Of a stretch of 41,474 nucleotides of DNA, positions 6,226-17,199 are shown piece by piece. Location of the stretch: the NCBI GenBank assembly GCA_034432995.1, contig DAOUAY010000624.1, positions 1 to 41,474 of the forward strand, in the 5' to 3' direction. Position 1 is the stretch's first letter. Every line of letters begins with the position of its first letter. Origin of the DNA: Anaerolineae bacterium. GTDB lineage: Bacteria; Chloroflexota; Anaerolineae; B4-G1; SLSP01. Both the position numbers and the translations under genes were made by a program. The notes under the pieces were generated by a model. It saw nothing but the letters and a program-made list of their open reading frames with translations, did not search any database and was not told where the DNA came from.

Positions 6226-7989
6226 ATGCGAGAAATCGTCCGGTACAGCGTAGTATCAATCCTCTGTGCGTGCCTGCTGGCAGCCTGCCAGGGCGCGACG
6301 CCGAGTGTGTCCCCCACGGCAATAGTTGTCAGCGAGCCAACTTTTACCCCATTGCCCACTACCGCACCCCCCACGGCCACGCCGCCGCCCACCCCGACCG
6401 CCACGGTTGTCCCACTCGATCTTGTCGCCGCTGAAGCGCGCGCGCCGCAGATTACGTCGCCGGTGGGGATGGACGGTGCGCTCGTCCCCGGGACCGGCGG
6501 CATGCCGTGGTGGAACGACGCTGTCTTCTACGAGATTTTCGTGCGCAGCTTCTACGACAGCGATGGCGACGGTATCGGCGACCTCAACGGCCTGATCGAG
6601 CAGCTGGACTACCTCAACGACGGCAATCCCGCCACCACCGACGATCTGGGCGTCACCGGTATCTGGCTGATGCCCATCATGGCGTCACCCAGCTATCACG
6701 GCTACGACGTGACCGATTATTACACGGTCAACCCGGAATACGGCACCAACGCAGACTTCAAACGGCTGATGGCCGAGGCGCACAAGCGGGGTATCGTCAT
6801 CATCATCGACCTGGTGCTCAACCACACTTCCGCGCAACACCCGTGGTTCATCGAGGCGCAAGACCCGAATTCGGAAAGGCACGACTGGTATCGCTGGCGC
6901 GAAACGGGCGGCGCGGGCTGGCACCGGCTGGGCAGCGCCTACTATTTCGGCCTGTTCTGGGATCAGATGCCGGACTTGAATTTCGAGAACCCAGCGGTGA
7001 CCGATGAAATGCTCAACGTCACACGCTTCTGGCTGGAGGAAATGGGCGTCGACGGCTTCCGGTTGGACGCGATCAAGCACCTGATCGAAGAGGGCGAAGA
7101 GACGGAGAACACGGGGGCAACGCTCGATTGGTTCAAGGAGTTCTACGCCTTCTACAAGAGCATCAACCCCAACGCCTTCACCGTAGCCGAGGTGTGGAGT
7201 CCCACGCACATCGTCGCGCAGTACACCGGCGGCAAAGTGGACGTGTGTTTCGAGTTCGATCTGGCGGAAGCGATGCGCGAGGCCGCCTTTAGAGCGCGCA
7301 CGGGCAGCTTGTTGGTGGCACAGGAAAACGTGATCGCCGCTTACTCGCCGGGCCAGTACGCGACGTTCCTGGCCAACCACGACCAGACCCGCACGCGCTC
7401 CACCCTGATGAACGATGAACAGGCCAAAGTTGCGGCGACACTGCAACTCACCTTCCCCGGCATCCCTTTCATCTACTACGGCGAGGAAATCGGTATGCAG
7501 GGGGCCAAGCCCGACGAGAACATCCGCCGCCCGATGCAGTGGACACCCGACGGCGGCTTTAGCACCGGAACGCCCTGGCGCGGCTACTATGAGGATTACG
7601 CTATGCGCAATATCACAACGCAAAACGCGACGCCGGACTCAATTCTCAACCACTATCGCGCCCTGGTCACGCTACGCAACCACCACGCGGCGTTGCGCAT
7701 CGGCGATTGGCAGCAGGTGACGGTGAAAGGGCGGTCGATCTACAGCTACGTTCGCGCCTACGAGGACGAAGTGGTGTTGGTGGTGGTCAATCTGAGCGGG
7801 CAAGCCGTCGCGGACTACACACTCACCCTGGTAAAAGGGCCGTTCACCGCCGCGCACGCTCCCGCGTGGCTGATGGGCGAAGGCGAATTGTATCTACCGC
7901 CCGTCAACGCGGATGGCGGCTTCGACGCCTACCGGCCAATTCCAGTGCTGCCGCCAAATAGCAGCACTGTCATTCAGTACATGCCGTAG
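6226..7989 (+). CDS. GH13 alpha-amylase-family glycoside hydrolase, lipoprotein
   Basis: GGAGG RBS and the lipobox LLAACQG, followed by a Pro/Thr linker. GH13 regions are present: [62 protein letters not shown]. Confidence 0.9.
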
Positions 7990-8055: not shown

Positions 8056-8628
8056 ATGACAAACAACACCTTTCTGCCGCCTCACGGCAACTATGAAGAA
8101 CTGCTTTCCTACCAGAAGGCTCAGGTTATCTATGACCTGACCTTCCGGTTCTGCGAGCGGTTCCTCAAGAAAGGCGACCGCACCATTGACCAAATGGTGC
8201 AGGCCGCCCGCTCCGGCAAGCAAAACATTGTGGAAGGCAGCAAGGCCTCCGTCACCTCCACAGAAATGGAAATCAAGCTGACCAACGTGGCTCGTGCCAG
8301 CCTCGAAGAACTCCTGGAAGATTACCGTGACTTCCTGCGCGTGCGCGATCTGCCCCTGTGGGACAAGGACTCACCGCAAGCCCAATACGTGCGCAAGCTG
8401 GGCGCCAGACCCCACGTGACGTACGAAGCCTACCGTGAGTTCTGCGATACCCGCCCCGCCGAAGTGGTGGCGAATATCGCCATTTGCCTAATTCACCAAG
8501 CCAACTACCTGCTGGACCAACAAATTCGCGGGCTGGAGCGAGACTTCCTTAAAGAAGGCGGCATCCGCGAGCGGATGACCCGCGCCCGCTTGCAAGCGCG
8601 CGACCAACAACTACGAACCCTCAAGTAG
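8056..8628 (+). CDS. Four-helix-bundle protein (23S rRNA intervening-sequence protein family) with suffix domain
   Basis: YQKAQVIYDLTFRFCERFL...DQMVQAARSGKQNIVEGS is typical of the TIGR02436-type family. The 3' end overlaps the convergent HIT gene by 18 nt. Confidence 0.7.
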   Translation: MTNNTFLPPHGNYEELLSYQKAQVIYDLTFRFCERFLKKGDRTIDQMVQAARSGKQNIVEGSKASVTSTEMEIKLTNVARASLEELLEDYRDFLRVRDLPLWDKDSPQAQYVRKLGARPHVTYEAYREFCDTRPAEVVANIAICLIHQANYLLDQQIRGLERDFLKEGGIRERMTRARLQARDQQLRTLK

Positions 8629-9111
8629 CAGCGCATCGAACAGCGGACGAAACGCCGCGTAGGTATCGTCCAGCGACTGCGGGATGACGCGTGTCTCACC
8701 GACCACCGTCATATAATTCACGTCGCCGGCCCAGCGGGGGACAATGTGCAGGTGGACGTGTTCTGCCACCCCGGCCCCCGCCACGTGGCCCTCGTTCACG
8801 CCAATGTTGAACCCCTGCGGAGCGAAGACCTGGCGCAGCACGCGCAGGCAGTGCTGCACCAGTTGCATCGTTTCTAGCAATGTGGCGTCGTCCAACCCTT
8901 CCAGCGTGCCCGTGTGTGTGTAGGGGACGACCATCATGTGGCCGTTTGTATAAGGGAAGCGGTTCAACATCACCGCGCAGCGTTCGCCGCGATAGAGGAT
9001 GTGCTCGACGGCATCGTCCTGGGTCAGCTTGTGACAAAACAAACACCCTGCCGCTTTGTCGTTTTCCCCACGCAGATAAGGCATCCGCCACGGCGCCCAC
9101 AACTGTTTCAT
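8611..9111 (-). CDS. HIT-family nucleotide hydrolase/phosphorylase (Ap4A-phosphorylase-like)
   Basis: Histidine triad HVHLHIVPRW. The N-terminus MKQLWAPWRMPYL resembles Rv2613c-type HIT proteins. The ATG at 9111 lies 8 nt below the atpG stop codon, so I prefer it to the track start at 9147, which would overlap atpG. Confidence 0.85.
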   Translation of the reverse strand: MKQLWAPWRMPYLRGENDKAAGCLFCHKLTQDDAVEHILYRGERCAVMLNRFPYTNGHMMVVPYTHTGTLEGLDDATLLETMQLVQHCLRVLRQVFAPQGFNIGVNEGHVAGAGVAEHVHLHIVPRWAGDVNYMTVVGETRVIPQSLDDTYAAFRPLFDALLLEGS

Positions 9112-9118
9112 CGTTCCC

Positions 9119-10078
9119 TCACAATTCAGGCAAGTTGGACTTCCCAAGCAAGCCCGCGCTGCTGGCCAGTTCCTGCATCTCGGTGGTAATGGCCTGGCGG
9201 CGGGCCGACTGCAGCTCCTGCGTCAATTCCTCGACCAAGCGATCCACATTCTGCGTGGCGGACTCCATCAGTTGGAAGCGCGCCGAGTGCTCGGAAGCCG
9301 CCGCGGTCAACAGCAGCGTGTAGAAATTGATTGCCGTCCACTGCTCCACGATGCGCACATACAACCGCAGCGGATCCGTCTCGATGATATACGGCGTGCC
9401 TGGCGGTTCACTTTCCGACACAAGCGGGTTAGCGGATGGTAATTCAGGCGGCAGCAGCCGGAAAACCGTCGGGCTGTAGCGCCCTGGCCCATCGTAGGTG
9501 TTGTAGATCACATCCACAGCATCGATCTCAGCGGCCTCGTATTGCTTTAGCCAATCGCGCGTCAACTGGAATACCAGATCAAAGGCGGGCAGGCGCGTCA
9601 CCGGCAGTCCTTGCGACCAGCGCAACGCGCGTTTTTGCCGGTGGAATATGCGGATGAGCCGTGTCCCGAACGCCGCCACATCCAGGGTCACGCCGCGCTG
9701 TTCCATGTCCGCGAAATGCTGTTCGGCGCGCGTGACCAGCGCGGCATTGTACCGGCCACACAGACCGCGTTCGCTCCCGATGGCCAACGCTATCACACGC
9801 TCTGGCGTGGGATCGGTCAACGCCGGTACTCTACGCAAAGAGAACAAGCGCTGGCGCACAGCGTCGAGCACGCGTGGCATTCGACTCGCGCCCTGGATAT
9901 GCGGCAACAGCAGCGGCAAAAAGGTCAACAGCCGGTCGCTGTAACCCCGCAAGCCGCGCAACCGGTTGAGCGCCATCTGCCAACTGCCGAGCGAGATCGT
10001 GCGCAGCGCCGCTAAAATCGGGCCGACGGCGCGCACGTTCTCTAAACGGCTCTGAATGCGTTCAAGGTCTTGTGACAT
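9119..10078 (-). CDS. atpG: F1Fo ATPase gamma subunit (N-ATPase-type operon)
   Basis: 319 aa. The N-terminal (IQSRLENVRAVGPILAALRTISL) and C-terminal (LTQELQSARRQAITTEMQELASSA) coiled-coil helices are typical of gamma. It is the last ATPase gene of the atpDC..BEFAG order. Confidence 0.85.
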   Translation of the reverse strand: MSQDLERIQSRLENVRAVGPILAALRTISLGSWQMALNRLRGLRGYSDRLLTFLPLLLPHIQGASRMPRVLDAVRQRLFSLRRVPALTDPTPERVIALAIGSERGLCGRYNAALVTRAEQHFADMEQRGVTLDVAAFGTRLIRIFHRQKRALRWSQGLPVTRLPAFDLVFQLTRDWLKQYEAAEIDAVDVIYNTYDGPGRYSPTVFRLLPPELPSANPLVSESEPPGTPYIIETDPLRLYVRIVEQWTAINFYTLLLTAAASEHSARFQLMESATQNVDRLVEELTQELQSARRQAITTEMQELASSAGLLGKSNLPEL

Positions 10079-10085
10079 GGCTTAA

Positions 10086-10424
10086 TCAGTATGTTTCGAA
10101 GCGTTCCAGATCCCAGACGAAAACGACGGCGCTGCCGATATAAGTGGTCGGCATCCCCAGCAATGGGCTGCGCTCAGCGACAAACTGGGAAGACGATTCG
10201 TCCGTGGCCGGCTCCAGCGCAATTTGCGTGCGGCAGTTATCGCGGATGATACCCAAAACTTGATCCAGGTCTTTCTGCCTGACAGCGATGAAGAGCATCT
10301 GCTGCGCCTGGCGCAACATCCCGCCCCGGCTGTCGGTGAACGTTGCCTTGTATCCCGCTGCGATAAGCGCTTCCATCACATGGCCGCCCTGATCGCGCGG
10401 CACCACTGCCATGACCATTCTCAT
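10086..10424 (-). CDS. PII-like signal-transduction protein of the DarA/PstA (DUF970, cyclic-di-AMP receptor) family
   Basis: 112 aa. RMVMAVVPRDQGGHVMEALIAAGYKATFTDSRGGMLRQAQQMLFIAVRQKDLDQVLGIIRDNC aligns position by position with B. subtilis DarA as I recall it ([63 protein letters not shown]). The C-terminal IGSAVVFVWDLERFETY matches VGGATVFVLPVDEFHQF. The ATG overlaps the atpA stop (ATGA), and AGGAGG lies 8 nt upstream inside atpA. Confidence 0.8.
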   Translation of the reverse strand: MRMVMAVVPRDQGGHVMEALIAAGYKATFTDSRGGMLRQAQQMLFIAVRQKDLDQVLGIIRDNCRTQIALEPATDESSSQFVAERSPLLGMPTTYIGSAVVFVWDLERFETY

Positions 10425-12169
10425 AGCCCAAGCCTCCTTTTGAACCAGGCGGTGCGGAAATCCTCCATCATTTCTGCCAGCATCGCGCGCACCTCTTCGA
10501 GGAATGTCGGCGCATATCCGCGTCGCGCATAGAGCGACGGGGTTTCCGCCTCGACGTAGGTCAGCAGCGCTCGTTCAAATGCCAGGATATCATCGGTGGG
10601 AATGTCGTCCAGGTGCCCCTCCGCTGCGGCAGCCAGCATGATGATTTGCGCCGCCAAAGGGAGCGGTCGATGGACAGGCTGCGTGAGCAAACGCTGCAGA
10701 CGCTCGCCGCGACGAATCTGGCGTTGTGTGGCCTCGTCGACATCTGTGCCGAAGCGGGCGAACCGCGCCACCTCCTCGTACTGCGCCAATTCCAACCGCA
10801 GCGACGAGGCCAGGGCGCGCATGGCCGGCGCCTGCGCCGCGCCCCCCACCCGCGAGACCGAGCGCCCGGCATCGATAGCGGGCTTCACGCCGCGATTGAA
10901 CAAATCACTATCCAACAGAATCTGTCCATCGGTGATCGAAATCAGGTTCGTGGGAATGTAGGCCGACATGCTCCCGCGCTGTGTTTCGACAATCGGCAAG
11001 GCTGTCAGCGAATAACCGCCCGCCGCTTCGCTCAACTTGCACGCCCGCTCCAATAGACGCGAGTGCAGGTAGAAAATATCGCCTGGATAGGCTTCGCGGC
11101 CCGGCGGACGGCGCAACAGCAGGCTCAACTCACGGTAAGCGTCGGCGTGCCGAGTGAGGTCGTCGTAGACCACAAGCACGTCGTGGCCCTCCCACATCAC
11201 GCCTTCGGCCATGGTACATCCGGCGTAGGGCGCCAGATAGCGCAGCGCGGGCGGGTCGTCAGGGCTGGAGACGATGACGGTGGTGTATTCCAGTGCGCCA
11301 GCGTGGCGCAAGGTCTCGATCACCGCCAGCGTGGAGGACTTCTTCTGCCCAATCGCCACATAGAAGCAGACCACACCGGAATGTTTTTGGTTGAGGATCG
11401 CATCCACCGCCAGCGTGGTCTTGCCGGTCTGCCGGTCGCCGATGATGAGTTCGCGTTGCCCGCGTCCAATCGGGATGAGCGCATCCACCATCTTCCAGCC
11501 GGTCAGCAGCGGCTCGTTCACCGGCTCGCGGTCGACGATGCCCGGCGCGTCATGCTCGAGGTGAGTGTAGTAGGCCGACTCGATCGGCCCGCGTTCATCC
11601 AGTGGCTGTCCGAGTGGGTTGACCACGCGCCCCAGAAGATTCCGTCCTACCGGAACTTGCAAGCGTTCGCCGGTTGCCATGACCTGATCCCCACCCTGGA
11701 TGCCCTCGGCGGGCCCCAGCAGAATCACATCGACATGATCGCGCTCCAAATTCAGAATCAGCCCTTGCACGCCGGTAGGGAAGGTCACCAATTCATCTGT
11801 GCAGGAACGCGGCAAGCCCGAGAGCGTCGCCACGCCGTTTCCGATACGCTGTACCGTGCCAACCGCGCGATACTGGACCTGCGCATCGATCGTCATCACC
11901 CGGTCGGTGAGCACGCGCACCATTTTGGCGATTTCGGGTCTGATCGAGCCAATGCCGGCGATCGCCGCAACTTCCTCACTCAGATGCTTCACAATGCTGG
12001 TGTCGCCGGCGCGATAGCGCCGCACCTCAGCGCCGACGTGTGGCGCACGCTCCCGCAAAATGCGCAACAGCGTCCTGACATCGGCGCCGTAAGCCGGTTG
12101 TTCCTCTCGCCGTTGTGACACGCCTGGCTGGAGCATAGACGGCGACGACAAGGATTGTCGCTCACTCAT
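10421..12169 (-). CDS. atpA: F1Fo ATPase alpha subunit with an N-terminal extension of about 70 aa
   Basis: Walker A GDRQTGKT and conserved alpha blocks (PGREAYPGDIFYLHSRLLERA, ITDGQI). The start at 12169 overlaps the atpF stop by 8 nt. The canonical alpha N-terminus begins near residue 76. Confidence 0.9.
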   Translation of the reverse strand: MSERQSLSSPSMLQPGVSQRREEQPAYGADVRTLLRILRERAPHVGAEVRRYRAGDTSIVKHLSEEVAAIAGIGSIRPEIAKMVRVLTDRVMTIDAQVQYRAVGTVQRIGNGVATLSGLPRSCTDELVTFPTGVQGLILNLERDHVDVILLGPAEGIQGGDQVMATGERLQVPVGRNLLGRVVNPLGQPLDERGPIESAYYTHLEHDAPGIVDREPVNEPLLTGWKMVDALIPIGRGQRELIIGDRQTGKTTLAVDAILNQKHSGVVCFYVAIGQKKSSTLAVIETLRHAGALEYTTVIVSSPDDPPALRYLAPYAGCTMAEGVMWEGHDVLVVYDDLTRHADAYRELSLLLRRPPGREAYPGDIFYLHSRLLERACKLSEAAGGYSLTALPIVETQRGSMSAYIPTNLISITDGQILLDSDLFNRGVKPAIDAGRSVSRVGGAAQAPAMRALASSLRLELAQYEEVARFARFGTDVDEATQRQIRRGERLQRLLTQPVHRPLPLAAQIIMLAAAAEGHLDDIPTDDILAFERALLTYVEAETPSLYARRGYAPTFLEEVRAMLAEMMEDFRTAWFKRRLGL

Positions 12170-12944
12170 TCGCTAATCTCTCCTTCAACACATCCATCAC
12201 TTCCTCGTGCAAGGCGTCCAGCTTGCCGGCGATGGTGTTATCCAGCATCAAATCGCCAATGCGCACGCGCATCCCCAATCCCAACGCCGGTTCAACTTTC
12301 AGATCGAGCGTGATGTTGCGGTCCGCAAGCGCGGTGAAGGTGCGCACAAGTTGGCCCTGCTGCTCGGCTGTGAGCGAGCGAGCCACGCGCGCAATCACAA
12401 CGGGCGTGCGCGCGCCCAGAGAACGCCGCAACAACTCCACCCGCTGCATGTCGGCGCGCCCCAACTCCCACACACTGTCATTGAGCTGTTTGAGCAGCGC
12501 CTCTTGCAGGGATTCCGACGCGACGCGACCGACCGCCAAGGCGCTCACATCCAAAACTGCGCGGAGCAGGTCTTCGTGGAACTCATCCACAGACTGGCGC
12601 TTCAAGCGATAGGCATCCACCTGCGCCTCGGTAAGAATGTGCTCCACTTCGGCCTGCACTTCCTGCATCAGCGCCACCCGGTCAAGCTCGGCCCGGTTTT
12701 TTGCCTCTTCGATCATCCTGGCAGCCTCTTCCTCTGTGCCTTCCATGCGGGTCTCCAACTCCACGCGCAACGCAGCCGCGGCCTCGCGGTCGGCCAGCAG
12801 TTCTAGCTGTAGCTGCTCCTTTTCCGCAGCGACCGCCCTGATGCGCGCCGACACAGGACGAAAAAGGAAATGGTAGAGCAATCCGGCAAAAACCAGAAAG
12901 TTGAATATCTGCCAGAGAATGGTAAAGACATCTAATTCAAGCAT
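12162..12944 (-). CDS. atpF: F1Fo ATPase subunit b fused to a delta(OSCP)-like C-terminal domain
   Basis: N-terminal TM (ILWQIFNFLVFAGLLYHFLFRP) followed by a long charged helix. The C-terminal ITLDLKVEPALGLGMRVRIGDLMLDNTIAGKLDAL resembles the delta-subunit C-terminus. There is no separate atpH in the operon. Confidence 0.8.
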   Translation of the reverse strand: MLELDVFTILWQIFNFLVFAGLLYHFLFRPVSARIRAVAAEKEQLQLELLADREAAAALRVELETRMEGTEEEAARMIEEAKNRAELDRVALMQEVQAEVEHILTEAQVDAYRLKRQSVDEFHEDLLRAVLDVSALAVGRVASESLQEALLKQLNDSVWELGRADMQRVELLRRSLGARTPVVIARVARSLTAEQQGQLVRTFTALADRNITLDLKVEPALGLGMRVRIGDLMLDNTIAGKLDALHEEVMDVLKERLANE

Positions 12945-12977: not shown

Positions 12978-13259
12978 TTAACCCGTCGGGAAAAATCGAT
13001 CCAGCAACGGGTTGGCAAAGATCAACACCAGCACGACCAGCAAGACGTAAATCGCCGTTGTCTCCAGTAGAACGAGCGCAATGAGCATCGTGTTGCGGAT
13101 ATCCCCGGCCGCTTCCGGCTGGCGGATCATCCCCTCCAGAGCCTTGAGGACCGCGCGTCCTTCGACCAGGGCCGGCGTGATGGCTCCGAACACCATCCCC
13201 AACGCCGCCACGATGATTGTCACGACCGTCACCAATGTACCAGGATCTAGCTCTGCCAT
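12978..13259 (-). CDS. atpE: F1Fo ATPase c subunit with a Na+-type ion-binding signature
   Basis: Helical hairpin with the RQPE loop. LLETTAIY equals E65/T66/T67/Y70 of the I. tartaricus ESTGIY motif. Glu (VEGRAV) occupies the Q32-equivalent position, giving two carboxylates. Confidence 0.88.
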   Translation of the reverse strand: MAELDPGTLVTVVTIIVAALGMVFGAITPALVEGRAVLKALEGMIRQPEAAGDIRNTMLIALVLLETTAIYVLLVVLVLIFANPLLDRFFPTG

Positions 13260-13300: not shown

Positions 13301-13939
13301 TCATTTGCTGTCCCCAAGCGCCGAAGCGATGTAACTCGAGGCCAAAATAGTAAAAACATAGGCTTGAAAAACGCCTGAAATCGTCTCTAACAGCATCATC
13401 GGCAGCGGCACTATAGGCTGGACTAACGAAAACATCACAGCGACAATGAATTCTGAACTGATCACATTGCCGAACAAGCGTAACGTCAACGACATCGTCC
13501 GGCTCAATTGCCCGATCATTTCCAGAGGGAACACAAAAATCGGGGTAGCCAGACTCTTGAGGTAGCCCCACACGCCCTTTTCACGCACGCCAAAATAGTG
13601 CACCGCAAAGAAGACCACCAACGCCATCGCCAACGGCGTGTTAATATCCTTCGTCGGCGTGTCCAGGAACGGCAGCAATCCCAGGTTGTTGGCAAGCAAA
13701 AGAAAGAGCATCAACGCGCCCAGGAAAGGGAGAAACGGTTCTGCCGACCGGCCCAGCATATCCGACACCATATCACTGACGAAGTCGATGAACATTTCCA
13801 GCGCCTCGGGCATCCAGCGACGCGCGACAAGGACCAGGGCCAAGATCAACGCTATCATGATCCACGTCGAAATCACCGTGTCGCGCACAGGGATGAGGTC
13901 GAAGAGCCAGAAAACGACTTTTGGGAAAACATCATCCAT
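13301..13939 (-). CDS. atpB: F1Fo ATPase a subunit
   Basis: Polytopic, with the conserved stator-Arg motif LSLTLRLFGN. It overlaps the upstream small gene by 8 nt. Confidence 0.88.
   Translation of the reverse strand: MDDVFPKVVFWLFDLIPVRDTVISTWIMIALILALVLVARRWMPEALEMFIDFVSDMVSDMLGRSAEPFLPFLGALMLFLLLANNLGLLPFLDTPTKDINTPLAMALVVFFAVHYFGVREKGVWGYLKSLATPIFVFPLEMIGQLSRTMSLTLRLFGNVISSEFIVAVMFSLVQPIVPLPMMLLETISGVFQAYVFTILASSYIASALGDSK

Positions 13940-14200: not shown

Positions 14201-14204
<4 letters not shown>
13932..14204 (-). CDS. Small hydrophobic AtpQ/AtpR(AtpI)-like N-ATPase accessory protein
   Basis: 90 aa with 3 predicted TM segments. It fills the whole atpC-atpB gap and overlaps both neighbours (4 nt and 8 nt). 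It occupies the atpQ/atpR position of N-ATPase operons, but only one such gene is present. Confidence 0.65.
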
Positions 14205-16070
<1,866 letters not shown>

Positions 16071-16191
16071 TCATTGCCGTCTAAGTATACCAAGAGAATC
16101 CTGAGGAAGCAAGACAAAAACTGTGGGAAGTCATTGCAAAATCCCCATTTGCGTGTATTATCAGGCTGGTAAATGCAATAGGAGAGAAACT

Positions 16192-17199
16192 ATGCCACTA
16201 GTAGAAGAGCTAGGTATCGACCTCGGTACGGTCAATGTGCTGGTCTATGTGCGCGGGCGAGGGATTGTGCTACAAGAGCCTTCGGTCGTCGCCCAACAAA
16301 TTGATAACGGAGAGATCGTCGCCGTCGGCGAAGAGGCGCGCGCGATGATGGGACGCGCCCCGGAGACCATCCAAGTACGACGCCCGTTGCGCGATGGGGT
16401 TATCGCCGATTACCGCATCACCCAGAAAATGCTCTACTACTTCATCAACCGTTCGATTGGCAAAACGCGGTTGATCAAACCGCGGGTCTTCGTCACCGTA
16501 CCCTTCGGCGTCACCCAGGTGGAAAGCCGGGCCGTCCGCGAGGCCGCGTTGGAAGCCGGAGCAGGCCGCGCGTACTTGATCCCTGAACCGCTGGCGGGCG
16601 CGATCGGAGCCGGGTTGCCAATTCACACACCCGGCGGGCATATGATCGTCGACCTGGGCGGCGGCGCAAGCGAGGCGGCGGTGCTGTCCGTCTACGGTGT
16701 GGTGACGTCAGCCGCCATCCGCGTGGGCGGCGTCCGTATGGACGAAACCATCGCCGCGTACGTACGCCGCAAATACAACCTGATGCTCGGCCTGCCGAGC
16801 GCCGAAGAAGCCAAAATCCGCATCGGCTCCGCCATTCCTACCGACGACAGTATGCGCATGGAAGTGCAGGGCCGCGATCAGGTGACCGGTCTGCCGCGTA
16901 GTGTCGAAATCAGCACCGACGATGTCGCCGAAGCCCTGGAAGAGCCAGTCGCCCTCATCATCAACATGGTCAAGTCCGTGCTCGAACGCACGCCTCCCGA
17001 ATTAGCCTCCGACATCATCGACCGTGGCATGACGATGATCGGCGGCGGGTCGCTCCTGCGCAATTTCGACCAGCTCCTGACACAAGAAACCGGCGTGCCG
17101 GTCTACGTCGCCGACGCGCCGATGGCATGTGTGGCGGTCGGCGCGGGCAAGGCGCACGCCCTGCTCCCCTACCTGCAACGGACGCTCTCCAAGCTGTAA
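16192..17199 (+). CDS. mreB: Rod-shape-determining actin homologue MreB
   Basis: LGIDLGTVNVLVYVRGRGIVLQEPSVVA, IVDLGGGASEAAVLS, GIVLTGGGSLL-like MTMIGGGSLLRNFDQLLTQETGVPV. The ATG at 16192 follows GGAGAG. No mreC or mreD follows. Confidence 0.92.
   Translation: MPLVEELGIDLGTVNVLVYVRGRGIVLQEPSVVAQQIDNGEIVAVGEEARAMMGRAPETIQVRRPLRDGVIADYRITQKMLYYFINRSIGKTRLIKPRVFVTVPFGVTQVESRAVREAALEAGAGRAYLIPEPLAGAIGAGLPIHTPGGHMIVDLGGGASEAAVLSVYGVVTSAAIRVGGVRMDETIAAYVRRKYNLMLGLPSAEEAKIRIGSAIPTDDSMRMEVQGRDQVTGLPRSVEISTDDVAEALEEPVALIINMVKSVLERTPPELASDIIDRGMTMIGGGSLLRNFDQLLTQETGVPVYVADAPMACVAVGAGKAHALLPYLQRTLSKL

Follow-up and report, generated by a model that had tools for sequence, protein, structure and literature searches.

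A PstA/DarA-family PII-like gene between atpA and atpG of an N-type-like ATPase operon in Anaerolineae suggests an undescribed nucleotide-sensing regulator of a sodium-pump-type ATPase

The window analyzed here, i.e., the whole stretch of 41,474 nucleotides of contig DAOUAY010000624.1 from an Anaerolineae bacterium (assembly GCA_034432995.1), encodes an ATPase operon in the gene order D-C-(R/I-like)-B-E-F-A-PII-G, in which atpF and atpA overlap, atpQ is missing and an additional gene for a PII-like protein lies between atpA and atpG. The features of the locus are collected in Table 1 in the direction of transcription.

Table 1. Features of the ATPase operon and of the embedded PII-like gene in the window.
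Feature	Position	Strand	Assignment
atpD (beta)	14595..16013	minus	Pfam and NCBIfam; first operon gene
atpC (epsilon)	14201..14602	minus	PF02823
AtpR/AtpI-like protein, 90 aa, three TM helices	13932..14204	minus	PF03899, 26.3 bits; Arg in TM2 and TM3
atpB (a subunit)	13301..13939	minus	PF00119, 147.8 bits
atpE (c subunit)	12978..13259	minus	Glu in TM1 (ALVEGRA), ETTxxY in TM2
atpF (long b, 260 aa)	12162..12944	minus	PF00430; delta/OSCP-like C-terminus (PF00213, residues 186-248)
atpA (alpha, 582 aa)	10421..12169	minus	Pfam and NCBIfam
N-terminal extension of alpha, ~75 aa	11945..12169	minus	alignment and self-alignment; tandem repeat of the native N-terminal helix
Shine-Dalgarno sequence AGGAGG	10433..10438	minus	8 nt upstream of the PII ATG, within the atpA coding sequence
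PII-like protein gene, 112 aa	10086..10424	minus	PF06153; "class A", the ATPase-embedded subfamily
Codons 28-42 of the PII-like gene, TFTDSRGGMLRQAQQ	10299..10343	minus	T-loop/ligand-site region, most conserved stretch of the subfamily
atpG (gamma, 319 aa)	9119..10078	minus	PF00231, 154.7 bits
HIT-family, Ap4A-phosphorylase-like gene	8611..9111	minus	PF01230; ATG 7 nt past the atpG stop

N-ATPase operons were described with the gene order atpDCQRBEFAG, with a three-TM AtpR carrying Arg in two TM helices as family hallmark and with a c subunit that combines a Glu in TM1 with the Na+ ligand set E(S/T)TxxY (Dibrova 2010, PMC2881411). In that description the subunits group apart from those of F-type enzymes, and the N-ATPase always accompanies a canonical rotary ATPase as the second one. 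The c subunit of the window contains ALVEGRA and LLETTAIY, a motif that is kept in all loci and agrees with the Na+ site of N-type enzymes, and, as in N-ATPases, there is no separate delta gene and the long b subunit ends in a delta-like C-terminus. The 90-aa protein has the topology and the Arg pattern of AtpR, yet it matches PF03899 and not PF12966; its orthologue in locus L030 scores 35.1 bits with the AtpR model PF12966 (cut-off 26). Both atpQ (PF09527) and an R-like gene are present in the relatives L012, L017, L020, L028, L034 and L044. The subclade of the window has lost atpQ, which members of the clade at a greater distance have kept. The best NCBIfam match of atpF is alt_F1F0_F0_B, and in the window none of the alt_F1F0 models of NCBIfam reaches its cut-off. 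In pairwise identities, which do not amount to a full phylogeny, subunits a, c and b of Fo lie nearer to the N-ATPase of pAQ7 than to the F-type enzyme of Bacillus (a subunit: 38% to N-type vs. 28% to Bacillus), whereas alpha, beta and gamma are about as close to the Bacillus F-type enzyme as to the N-ATPase (alpha: 53% to N-type vs. 56% to F-type; beta: 56% vs. 60%). The term N-ATPase, used in a sequence-only reading of this DNA, finds support in the Fo subunits, in the motif of the c subunit, in the long b subunit and in the atpQ and atpR genes of relatives. It is not supported by the gene content of the window with respect to atpQ, by the alt_F1F0 cut-offs or by the F1 subunits. Judged by its genes, the ATPase is N-type-like and shows the hallmarks of the family in part only.

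The PII-like open reading frame starts with the ATG at 10424-10422 and ends with the stop codon at 10088-10086. The stop codon of atpA (TGA, 10423-10421) shares bases with this ATG, forming the overlap ATGA that is kept in most loci, the AGGAGG (10438-10433) coincides with two Arg codons of atpA, and the ATG of atpG at 10078 follows the PII stop after a spacer of 7 nt. Read directly from the coordinates, the overlap, the Shine-Dalgarno sequence and the spacer all agree with the sequence-only reading, and, going by these coupling signals, the embedding in the operon and the translational coupling that it had claimed are real. A scan of the ATPase operon for promoters and terminators yielded no internal signal above chance. 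On the basis of its position and of the coupling signals we propose that the PII gene is co-transcribed with the ATPase genes and translationally coupled to alpha. The transcription unit probably ends with the HIT-family gene, since only 7 nt separate the ATG of that gene from the stop codon of atpG.

The open reading frame belongs to the PstA/DarA family and has a PII fold. The Pfam family PF06153 (CdAMP_rec; DUF970) matches the 112-aa protein with 53.6 bits (gathering cut-off 27; E 2.9e-14), residues 1-110 aligning with profile positions 1-107 of 109, and PF06153 is present in all 120 homologues among the matches listed. This significant full-length match bears out the label DarA/PstA-like at the level of the Pfam family; orthology to DarA does not hold, as the score with the NCBIfam DarA equivalog NF058593 is 53.4 bits, far short of the 140 required. 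The top sequence matches in the PDB are PstA structures (4d3g/4wk1, E 2.6e-14). An AlphaFold2 model (mean pLDDT 82.7, region 77-87 in the B-loop disordered) predicts a beta-alpha-beta-beta-alpha-beta fold of the PII-like type, in which the T-loop is short and the B-loop long, and in a Foldseek search of this model the PstA/DarA structures 4rww, 3m05, 4d3h and 4rle lead, PstA with c-di-AMP among them, followed by canonical PII proteins. The gene is under purifying selection, with dN/dS values of 0.08-0.16 relative to close relatives, and these values together with the pLDDT and the Foldseek matches argue that it is not a chance open reading frame. Two other assignments were rejected, i.e., a canonical PII protein of the GlnB/GlnK type (PF00543, 15.2 bits, cut-off 25) and DUF2179, which scored below its cut-off. 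One homologue, P0187, resembles a fusion protein; its C-terminal part is lyase-like and unrelated, and the protein was taken as a chimera rather than a meaningful fusion.

The arrangement atpA-PII-atpG is not confined to one assembly, a finding that the sequence-only reading had named as one that would refute it. A survey of gene neighborhoods found it in about 44 independent loci from several orders of Anaerolineae, and every labelled one belongs to Chloroflexota/Anaerolineae. It occurs in 27 of the 32 species-representative Chloroflexota loci, in four more divergent lineages, one of them on a 2.13-Mb Chloroflexi MAG contig, and in 13 metagenome loci, to which A-PII-A'-G variants are added; the identity of the PII proteins among these loci goes down to about 35%. 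The gene is absent from 60 ATPase loci with a gamma subunit of at most 28% identity and from the pAQ7 reference N-ATPase operon, in agreement with the earlier statement that the canonical operon contains no such gene (Dibrova 2010, PMC2881411). It is also missing from three or four operons within the clade, among them the sister operons L046, L058 and L064, and stand-alone class A paralogues exist, namely a second copy in L033 and a gene in L037, a locus without ATPase genes, so that class A is not strictly tied to the operon. As judged from operon content, the gene is dispensable and its product an accessory factor and not a core subunit, and since some sister operons do without it, this factor is most likely a regulator. 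For P0151 and P0177, relatives of the classical type (class B), the contigs were too short to give a useful gene context. A comparison of the gamma subunits of operons with and without the PII gene revealed no distinguishing feature, hence no docking site on gamma can be deduced from it.

The same distribution bears on the reading that the protein is a signaling protein merely co-transcribed with the ATPase, its target being elsewhere, e.g., a transcription factor or a metabolic enzyme. The stand-alone paralogues and the dispensability of the gene in some operons are consistent with such a role, and while the partners of PstA/DarA were called unknown as late as December 2025 (PMC12802241), a preprint of July 2026 proposed that PstA of S. 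aureus forms a complex with GlnR and GlnA (PMC13484208). However, the exact slot between atpA and atpG and the ATGA overlap are kept down to about 35% identity and across several orders, which is hard to account for without a functional tie to the ATPase, and we consider a target elsewhere quite improbable.

The most conserved stretch of the subfamily is the T-loop/ligand-site region, and in alignment A1 the residues T28, S32, G35, L37, R38 and Q39 are invariant. In PstA the contact set for c-di-AMP was described as the consensus T28-KLxxxGGFLxxGNTT-43 together with G94-G-A96 (Campeotto 2015, PMC4316997), and class A proteins deviate from it. The T-loop of the 112-aa protein reads GGML (G34 G35 M36 L37) where PstA and DarA have GGFL, as was noticed in the sequence-only reading, and its caveat that the ligand may differ was justified beyond this one residue: throughout class A, Phe36 is replaced by Met or Val in 90% of the sequences, Asn41 by Gln in 89%, Gly47 by Ala in 88% and Thr43 by Met, and the Asp12-Arg67 pair is lost. 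Retained are Thr28 (99%), G34G35, Leu37, Phe99, GxA (94-96) and Cys64, while R33, R38, Q39 and W101 are clade-specific, near-invariant residues around the pocket. One embedded lineage, P0132 in L038, still has GGFL. These residues set the embedded proteins apart as a PF06153 subfamily of their own, with a predicted ligand pocket that is altered and still recognizable.

In mutational studies of PstA, the exchange T28A abolished binding of c-di-AMP, and binding was weakened by F36A (Kd 7 µM) and N41A (Kd 140 µM) in the Listeria protein and by N41A in the S. aureus protein (Kd 9.6 µM). ATP was not bound by PstA. The replacement of Phe36, Asn41 and Gly47 across the clade therefore makes c-di-AMP binding by the class A proteins uncertain, and c-di-AMP as ligand is possible, its proven binders having a pocket that differs from this one. 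c-di-AMP is a messenger of osmotic and K+ homeostasis. If the embedded protein were a genuine c-di-AMP receptor acting on the ATPase, c-di-AMP would control the extrusion of Na+, a physiologically coherent tie to ion homeostasis. The nearest characterized relatives all bind c-di-AMP, the essential Thr28 is almost always conserved alongside the glycine pair, L37, F99 and GxA, and the GGFL of P0132 shows that an embedded lineage can keep the family motif. The exchanges at positions 36 and 41, where a change to Ala weakens binding in PstA, the replacement of Gly47, the loss of Asp12-Arg67 and the DarA equivalog score far under its cut-off speak against it. On balance we regard a genuine c-di-AMP receptor as possible, if rather doubtful. 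A search of 448 kb of sequence revealed no diadenylate-cyclase motif, and neither the window nor 12 loci yielded a ydaO c-di-AMP riboswitch; both samples are too small to speak for whole genomes. The c-di-AMP receptor is a narrower version of the explanation preferred below, with the ligand fixed.

The remodelled pocket might instead sense another adenine nucleotide and report it to the ATPase, e.g., ATP/ADP as a measure of energy charge, or a linear diadenosine compound such as Ap4A or pApA. Such a change of ligand would be in line with the clade-wide replacement of contact residues and with the near-invariant R33, R38, Q39 and W101, and the HIT gene of the window would offer a link to Ap4A: its product matches the AP-4-A phosphorylase structures 3ANO/3WO5 with an E-value of 1e-35 (the NCBIfam model NF052622 gives 153.6 bits, below its cut-off of 290), and a HIT gene directly follows atpG in 13 of the 42 assessable loci. 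Some PII-like proteins bind several adenine nucleotides, SbtB being an example (doi 10.1101/2023.08.10.552651). The linkage of atpG and HIT is seen in about 31% of the loci only and in subclades that keep the synteny MreB-atp-HIT, so it may be plain synteny; moreover, no member of PF06153 is known to bind ATP/ADP, Ap4A or pApA, and PstA does not bind ATP. A sensor of another adenine nucleotide is in our view rather unlikely.

An alignment of alpha with the subunits of other loci and of E. coli revealed the N-terminal extension listed in Table 1. The self-alignment score of 42 was reached by none of 2000 shuffled sequences, the repeat has z values of 13-16 in L010, L011 and L016, and the N-terminal helix of alpha is duplicated in most loci. 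Repeat and PII gene do not co-vary strictly, the repeat being absent from L028, L038 and L044, which have the PII gene, and present in L046, which lacks it. These data bear on a further reading, in which the protein is a ligand-free structural or assembly factor, e.g., a cap that sits with three-fold symmetry on the alpha3beta3 crown, or a chaperone of alpha. Translational coupling to alpha would suit a 3:3 stoichiometry, the three-fold symmetry of a PII trimer matches that of alpha3beta3, the enzyme has no delta N-terminal domain and the alpha helix is widely duplicated. Nevertheless, in other phyla N-ATPases manage without a PII protein, as do some operons within the clade, the top conservation lies in the nucleotide-site region and not in a distinct surface patch, and the alpha extension does not follow the PII gene strictly. 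A structural or assembly factor is accordingly very unlikely.

Our preferred explanation is that the PII-like protein, as a trimer, is an accessory ligand-sensing regulator of the N-type F1Fo ATPase in Anaerolineae, a proposal for which we see the chances as evenly balanced. According to it, a PstA/DarA-family protein would have been recruited to an Na+-pumping, ATP-hydrolysing N-type ATPase. Because the gene would be co-transcribed with the ATPase genes and translationally coupled to alpha, synthesis of the protein would keep pace with that of the enzyme, plausibly at a ratio near one trimer to each alpha3beta3. As in other PII proteins, an adenine-containing nucleotide would be bound in the clefts between the subunits of the trimer that the protein presumably forms, and in one ligand state it would dock on the ATPase, so that ATP-driven ion pumping would be switched on or, with the opposite direction of regulation, off. 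It is the gene context that suggests a physical or regulatory link between the two putative partners, and the dispensability of the gene would be expected of a regulator more than of a core subunit. In a more specific and unlikely form of the idea, a PstA/DarA-type trimer would serve as a stoichiometric three-fold brake or clutch on the alpha3beta3 head, engaged or released by a di-adenosine signal, i.e., c-di-AMP or Ap4A; Ap4A is a candidate signal because of the co-operonic Ap4A-phosphorylase-like HIT gene.

In the literature searched, no publication was found that links PII-like proteins or PF06153 to an ATP synthase or N-ATPase, that reports a rotary ATPase as partner of the PII family, or that describes the N-ATPase of Anaerolineae, c-di-AMP in Chloroflexi or the arrangement atpA-PII-atpG, which had been called apparently undescribed. 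The data suggest that the embedded gene encodes an undescribed nucleotide-sensing regulator of a sodium-pump-type ATPase. The PstA/DarA family is widespread, and for one of its subfamilies the fixed slot in the ATPase operon, kept across a bacterial class, gives a testable target hypothesis, while N-type ATPases, the physiology and regulation of which are poorly known, would gain a possible nucleotide-sensing accessory protein. If the proposal is true, nucleotide signaling would be tied to ATP-driven Na+ extrusion, and if the brake or clutch form is true, it would be the first second-messenger control of an F/N-type ATPase and would give the PF06153 subfamily a physically defined target. The hosts are uncultured Anaerolineae that are frequent in metagenomes from sludge, sediment and hot springs, and the compact operon makes heterologous expression feasible.

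Compared with the known systems, the locus shares with the N-ATPase (Dibrova 2010) the lack of delta, the long b subunit and the Glu and E(S/T)TxxY of the c subunit. It resembles the N-ATPase in the order of those genes that both have and in the topology and Arg pattern of the AtpR-like three-TM protein, and it differs by the extra gene between atpA and atpG, the loss of atpQ in the subclade of the window and the N-terminal repeat of alpha. With PstA/DarA (YaaQ; DUF970) the protein has in common the Pfam family, the length, the predicted fold, the short T-loop and the long, variable B-loop. In contrast to these, class A has Met/Val36, Gln41, Met43 and Ala47, lacks Asp12/Arg67 and has gained Arg33, Gln39 and Trp101, and the characterized PstA/DarA members are from Firmicutes whereas the class A protein is part of a Chloroflexota ATPase operon.

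Small protein inhibitors of ATP hydrolysis by F-type ATPases are the C-terminal domain of epsilon, the alphaproteobacterial zeta subunit, IF1 and the cyanobacterial AtpTheta. To our knowledge their folds are unrelated, with no PII-like trimer among them, and no homology of the PII-like protein to any of the four was detected; what they may share is the outcome, a conditional block of ATP hydrolysis by a rotary ATPase. Closer in principle are the PII-family genes that lie beside the transporters they control, GlnK-AmtB, SbtB-SbtA, PII-NrtBCD and PotN-PotABCD (PMC10945777; doi 10.1101/2023.08.10.552651). There, as in the operon analyzed here, a small protein with PII fold is co-encoded with a membrane transport machine, and nucleotide-dependent docking provides the template for the mechanism proposed above. 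The partner would here be a rotary ATPase and the protein belongs to the PstA/DarA branch, not to GlnB/GlnK; if the proposal is true, a rotary motor would join the channels and ABC systems that are gated by a co-encoded PII protein.

The 112-residue product of the gene between atpA and atpG belongs to the family PF06153 (CdAMP_rec, formerly DUF970), which it matches over residues 1-110 with 53.6 bits against a cut-off of 27 (E 2.9e-14). The sequence-only reading had assigned this family and described the gene junctions, and all of these statements were correct. Read from the sequence, the atpA stop codon (10423-10421) is shared with the ATG of the PII-like gene (10424-10422) in an ATGA overlap, an AGGAGG (10438-10433) is located within atpA 8 nt 5' of this ATG, and 7 nt separate the stop codon (10088-10086) from the atpG ATG (10078). 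GGML replaces GGFL in the T-loop, as that reading also had it. A profile built from 47 homologues ranks S. aureus PstA (4d3g, 4wk1; E 2.6e-14) first among solved relatives, ahead of L. monocytogenes PstA, PEPE_1480 and B. subtilis DarA. The AlphaFold2 model (mean pLDDT 82.7) shows disorder confined to the B-loop region; in Foldseek it matches PstA with c-di-AMP, 3m05, 4d3h and DarA best among PDB entries, and canonical PII proteins come next. The dN/dS against close relatives is 0.08-0.16, and the gene encodes a real, conserved protein with a predicted PstA/DarA fold. As annotation pipelines already name homologues "cyclic-di-AMP receptor" or "YaaQ", the family assignment is not new; the novelty is in the gene context.

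Features of the operon and its surroundings in the window
Feature	Position	Strand	Basis or remark
mreB	16123-17199	+	divergent from atpD, just upstream
atpD	14595-16013	-	Pfam and NCBIfam
atpC	14201-14602	-	Pfam and NCBIfam
Membrane protein, 90 aa	13932-14204	-	PF03899 match; AtpR/AtpI-like
atpB	13301-13939	-	Pfam and NCBIfam
atpE	12978-13259	-	Pfam and NCBIfam
atpF	12162-12944	-	Pfam and NCBIfam
atpA	10421-12169	-	Pfam and NCBIfam
N-terminal extension of alpha, ~75 aa	11945-12169	-	5' end of atpA
PII-like gene	10086-10424	-	PF06153 match
atpG	9119-10078	-	Pfam and NCBIfam
HIT-family gene	8611-9111	-	

A scan of species-representative genomes yielded 32 loci, all in Chloroflexota MAGs (Anaerolineae, Anaerolineales, Thermoflexales, Ardenticatenaceae), 27 of which have the one-strand order atpD-C-(Q)-(R)-B-E-F-A-PII-G, most with the same 4-nt ATGA overlap. 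The divergent class A representatives (the embedded class, described below) whose position was checked, P0152, P0170, P0132 and P0284, likewise have atpA on one side and atpG on the other; P0284 comes from a Chloroflexi MAG, on a contig of 2.13 Mb. Metagenome loci were collected with a gamma-subunit profile and split by gamma identity to that of the window. The PII gene is present in 14 loci with at least 30% identity (once in the order A-PII-A'-G), absent from three or four such loci (L046, L058/L059, L064), in which the alpha-gamma gap is 15-23 nt, and found in none of the 60 loci whose gamma is less similar. In the reference, the pAQ7 N-ATPase operon of Picosynechococcus PCC 7002, this spacing is 3 nt. 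Based on this presence/absence pattern, the PII gene is a clade-specific, long-maintained yet dispensable insertion.

The loci L046 (1232-3870), L058 (1509-3873) and L064 (1-1045) fall within the same ATPase clade, with 34-52% gamma identity, and represent natural "knock-outs" for comparison. Locus L033 carries a second, stand-alone paralogue of the embedded type (7411-7731), 225 nt after atpG. The syntenic site in L037 (820-1452; Cupin_2 ... VTT-PRK-ThiS) comprises a PF06153 gene and an AtpR-like membrane ORF of 95 aa without any ATPase genes, and therefore may be a deletion remnant. In L032 (5959-6195) the PII gene is truncated to residues 43-112 and an unrelated 825-aa opposite-strand ORF lies upstream where atpA is expected, which points to disruption of the operon or else to misassembly.

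An exhaustive profile search of a representative-protein library returned 1507 PF06153-like representatives with two motif classes, the ATPase-embedded class A (T-F-x-E/D-S-R-G-G-M/V-L-R-Q-A/S-Q ... VFVWD) and the classical class B (TKLxxxGGFLxxGNTT ... VFVLDV). Many class B representatives (P0151, P0156, P0159, P0165, others) consist of two tandem PII-like domains (210-260 aa) and score nearer to the embedded subfamily than Firmicute PstA does. In PstA, c-di-AMP is contacted by Thr28, Arg26, Asn41 and Gln108 and by the main chain of Gly47, Phe36 and Leu37, with Phe36 and Phe99 stacking on it; binding is lost in T28A and when GGFL is changed to AAAA, and is weaker in N41A and F36A (PMC4316997, PMC4475381).

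Ligand-site residues in 184 class A sequences and 49 class B representatives (PstA numbering)
Position	Class A	Class B
12	Q/E	D 91%
Thr28	T 99%	T 100%
33	R 96%	T 55%
G34, G35	100%	100%
36	M 73%, V 17%	F 87%
L37	L 97%	L 95%
39	Q 96%	variable
41	Q 89%	N 87%
43	M 57%, T 25%	T 87%
47	A 88%	G 81%
67	Q and others	R 83%
F99	F 96%	F 89%
101	W 99%	L 55%

In the alignment, class A proteins are most conserved along the ligand-site stretch, and judged from these residues the class A pocket has been remodelled yet is clearly under selection. GGFL is still present in one embedded lineage (P0132, L038). c-di-AMP is a possible class A ligand that cannot be assumed. Some colour is given to the rival view of another ligand by the HIT gene, which is Ap4A phosphorylase-like (closest solved relatives include the M. 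tuberculosis enzyme, PDB 3ANO/3WO5, E 1e-35). A spacer of 7 nt separates its start from the atpG stop, a Shine-Dalgarno-like GAGGG is located inside the end of atpG, and in 13 of the 42 loci that could be assessed the gene lies directly 3' of atpG. It may belong to the ATPase operon and may be a hint of a connection with diadenosine polyphosphates. However, wider synteny is also conserved in the HIT-bearing subclades, and this lead is therefore weak. The MreB-atp synteny is also kept in L001-L003, L008, L022 and L023, so that neighbourhood conservation in the clade reaches beyond the operon. In L030, a glmS ribozyme (RF00234; 9917-10161 (+); 37.1 bits, just above the gathering score) is located ~3 kb 3' of the ATPase operon.

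The best-supported reading of the PII-like protein, held at about even odds, is that of an accessory regulator that senses a ligand and acts on the ATPase; the evidence is all genomic and from uncultured organisms. The fixed position with translational coupling to alpha and the restriction to one ATPase clade argue for it, while a signalling target elsewhere, with the PII gene merely co-transcribed with the ATPase, is improbable. The regulator reading is further favoured by strong purifying selection, which centres on the nucleotide site, and by dispensability in sister operons; a structural or assembly role without ligand is no likelier than a target elsewhere. PII-family proteins encoded beside transport systems typically regulate these by nucleotide-dependent docking, as in GlnK-AmtB, SbtB-SbtA, PII-NrtBCD and PotN-PotABCD (PMC10945777; doi 10.1101/2023.08.10.552651). 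By this precedent, the regulator would sense its ligand and dock onto the ATPase in a nucleotide-dependent manner. Full-text literature searches turned up no account of a rotary ATPase operon that contains a PII-like gene, whether of PF06153 or another family. Binding partners of the PstA family were still described as unknown in December 2025 (PMC12802241), and a 2026 preprint proposed GlnR and GlnA as PstA partners (PMC13484208). The components (PII-like receptor, N-type ATPase, PII-transporter pairing) are of known kinds; their combination is new and gives one PF06153 subfamily a target that can be tested.

The alpha subunit has peculiarities of its own. In its extension, the N-terminal helix and first strand of alpha are repeated in tandem (DVRTLLRILRER..VGAEVRRYRAG vs EIAKMVRVLTDR..IDAQVQYRAVG), and none of 2000 shuffles reached the score of this repeat (z 13-16 in L010, L011 and L016). 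The repeat is conserved across most loci; L028, L038 and L044 lack it. In canonical F-ATPases, delta binds at the alpha N-terminal helix. Two intact alpha genes are present in some operons (L015 1229-4774, L009 1-2696, L056 3-2954), arranged A-A'-PII-G or A-PII-A'-G; the L015 pair is 76% identical and both carry the Walker A motif.

N-ATPases were defined by the order atpDCQRBEFAG with AtpR as hallmark and AtpQ (PF09527), absence of the delta gene, an elongated b subunit whose end resembles delta, Glu in each helix of the c subunit together with a Na+ ligand set, separate clustering of subunits in trees, and occurrence only as second enzyme (Dibrova et al., PMC2881411). The window operon resembles these in its 260-aa b subunit with OSCP-like C-terminus and in its c subunit (...ALVEGRA... 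and ...LLETTAIY..., in all loci). Its gene order fits apart from atpQ, and its 90-aa protein shows the AtpR topology (three TM segments, Arg in two) but matches PF03899, not PF12966; the L030 orthologue matches PF12966 above cut-off. Unlike in N-ATPases, the NCBIfam "alternate F1F0" models all score below cut-offs for the window subunits and atpQ is missing in the window's subclade, where the atpC-atpB interval holds a single small membrane gene (L011-L013, L016, L017, L020, L024, L028, L030, L034 and L044 compared); as more distant clade members have atpQ, it was lost in this subclade. Identities to pAQ7 (N-type) versus Bacillus (F-type) are 38% and 28% for a, 39% and 31% for c, 53% and 56% for alpha, 56% and 60% for beta, and 23% and 22% for gamma, and b aligns over its full length with the N-type only. 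Judged by these comparisons, the enzyme would be best termed N-ATPase-like, with Fo and architecture of N-type and an ambiguous placement of F1.
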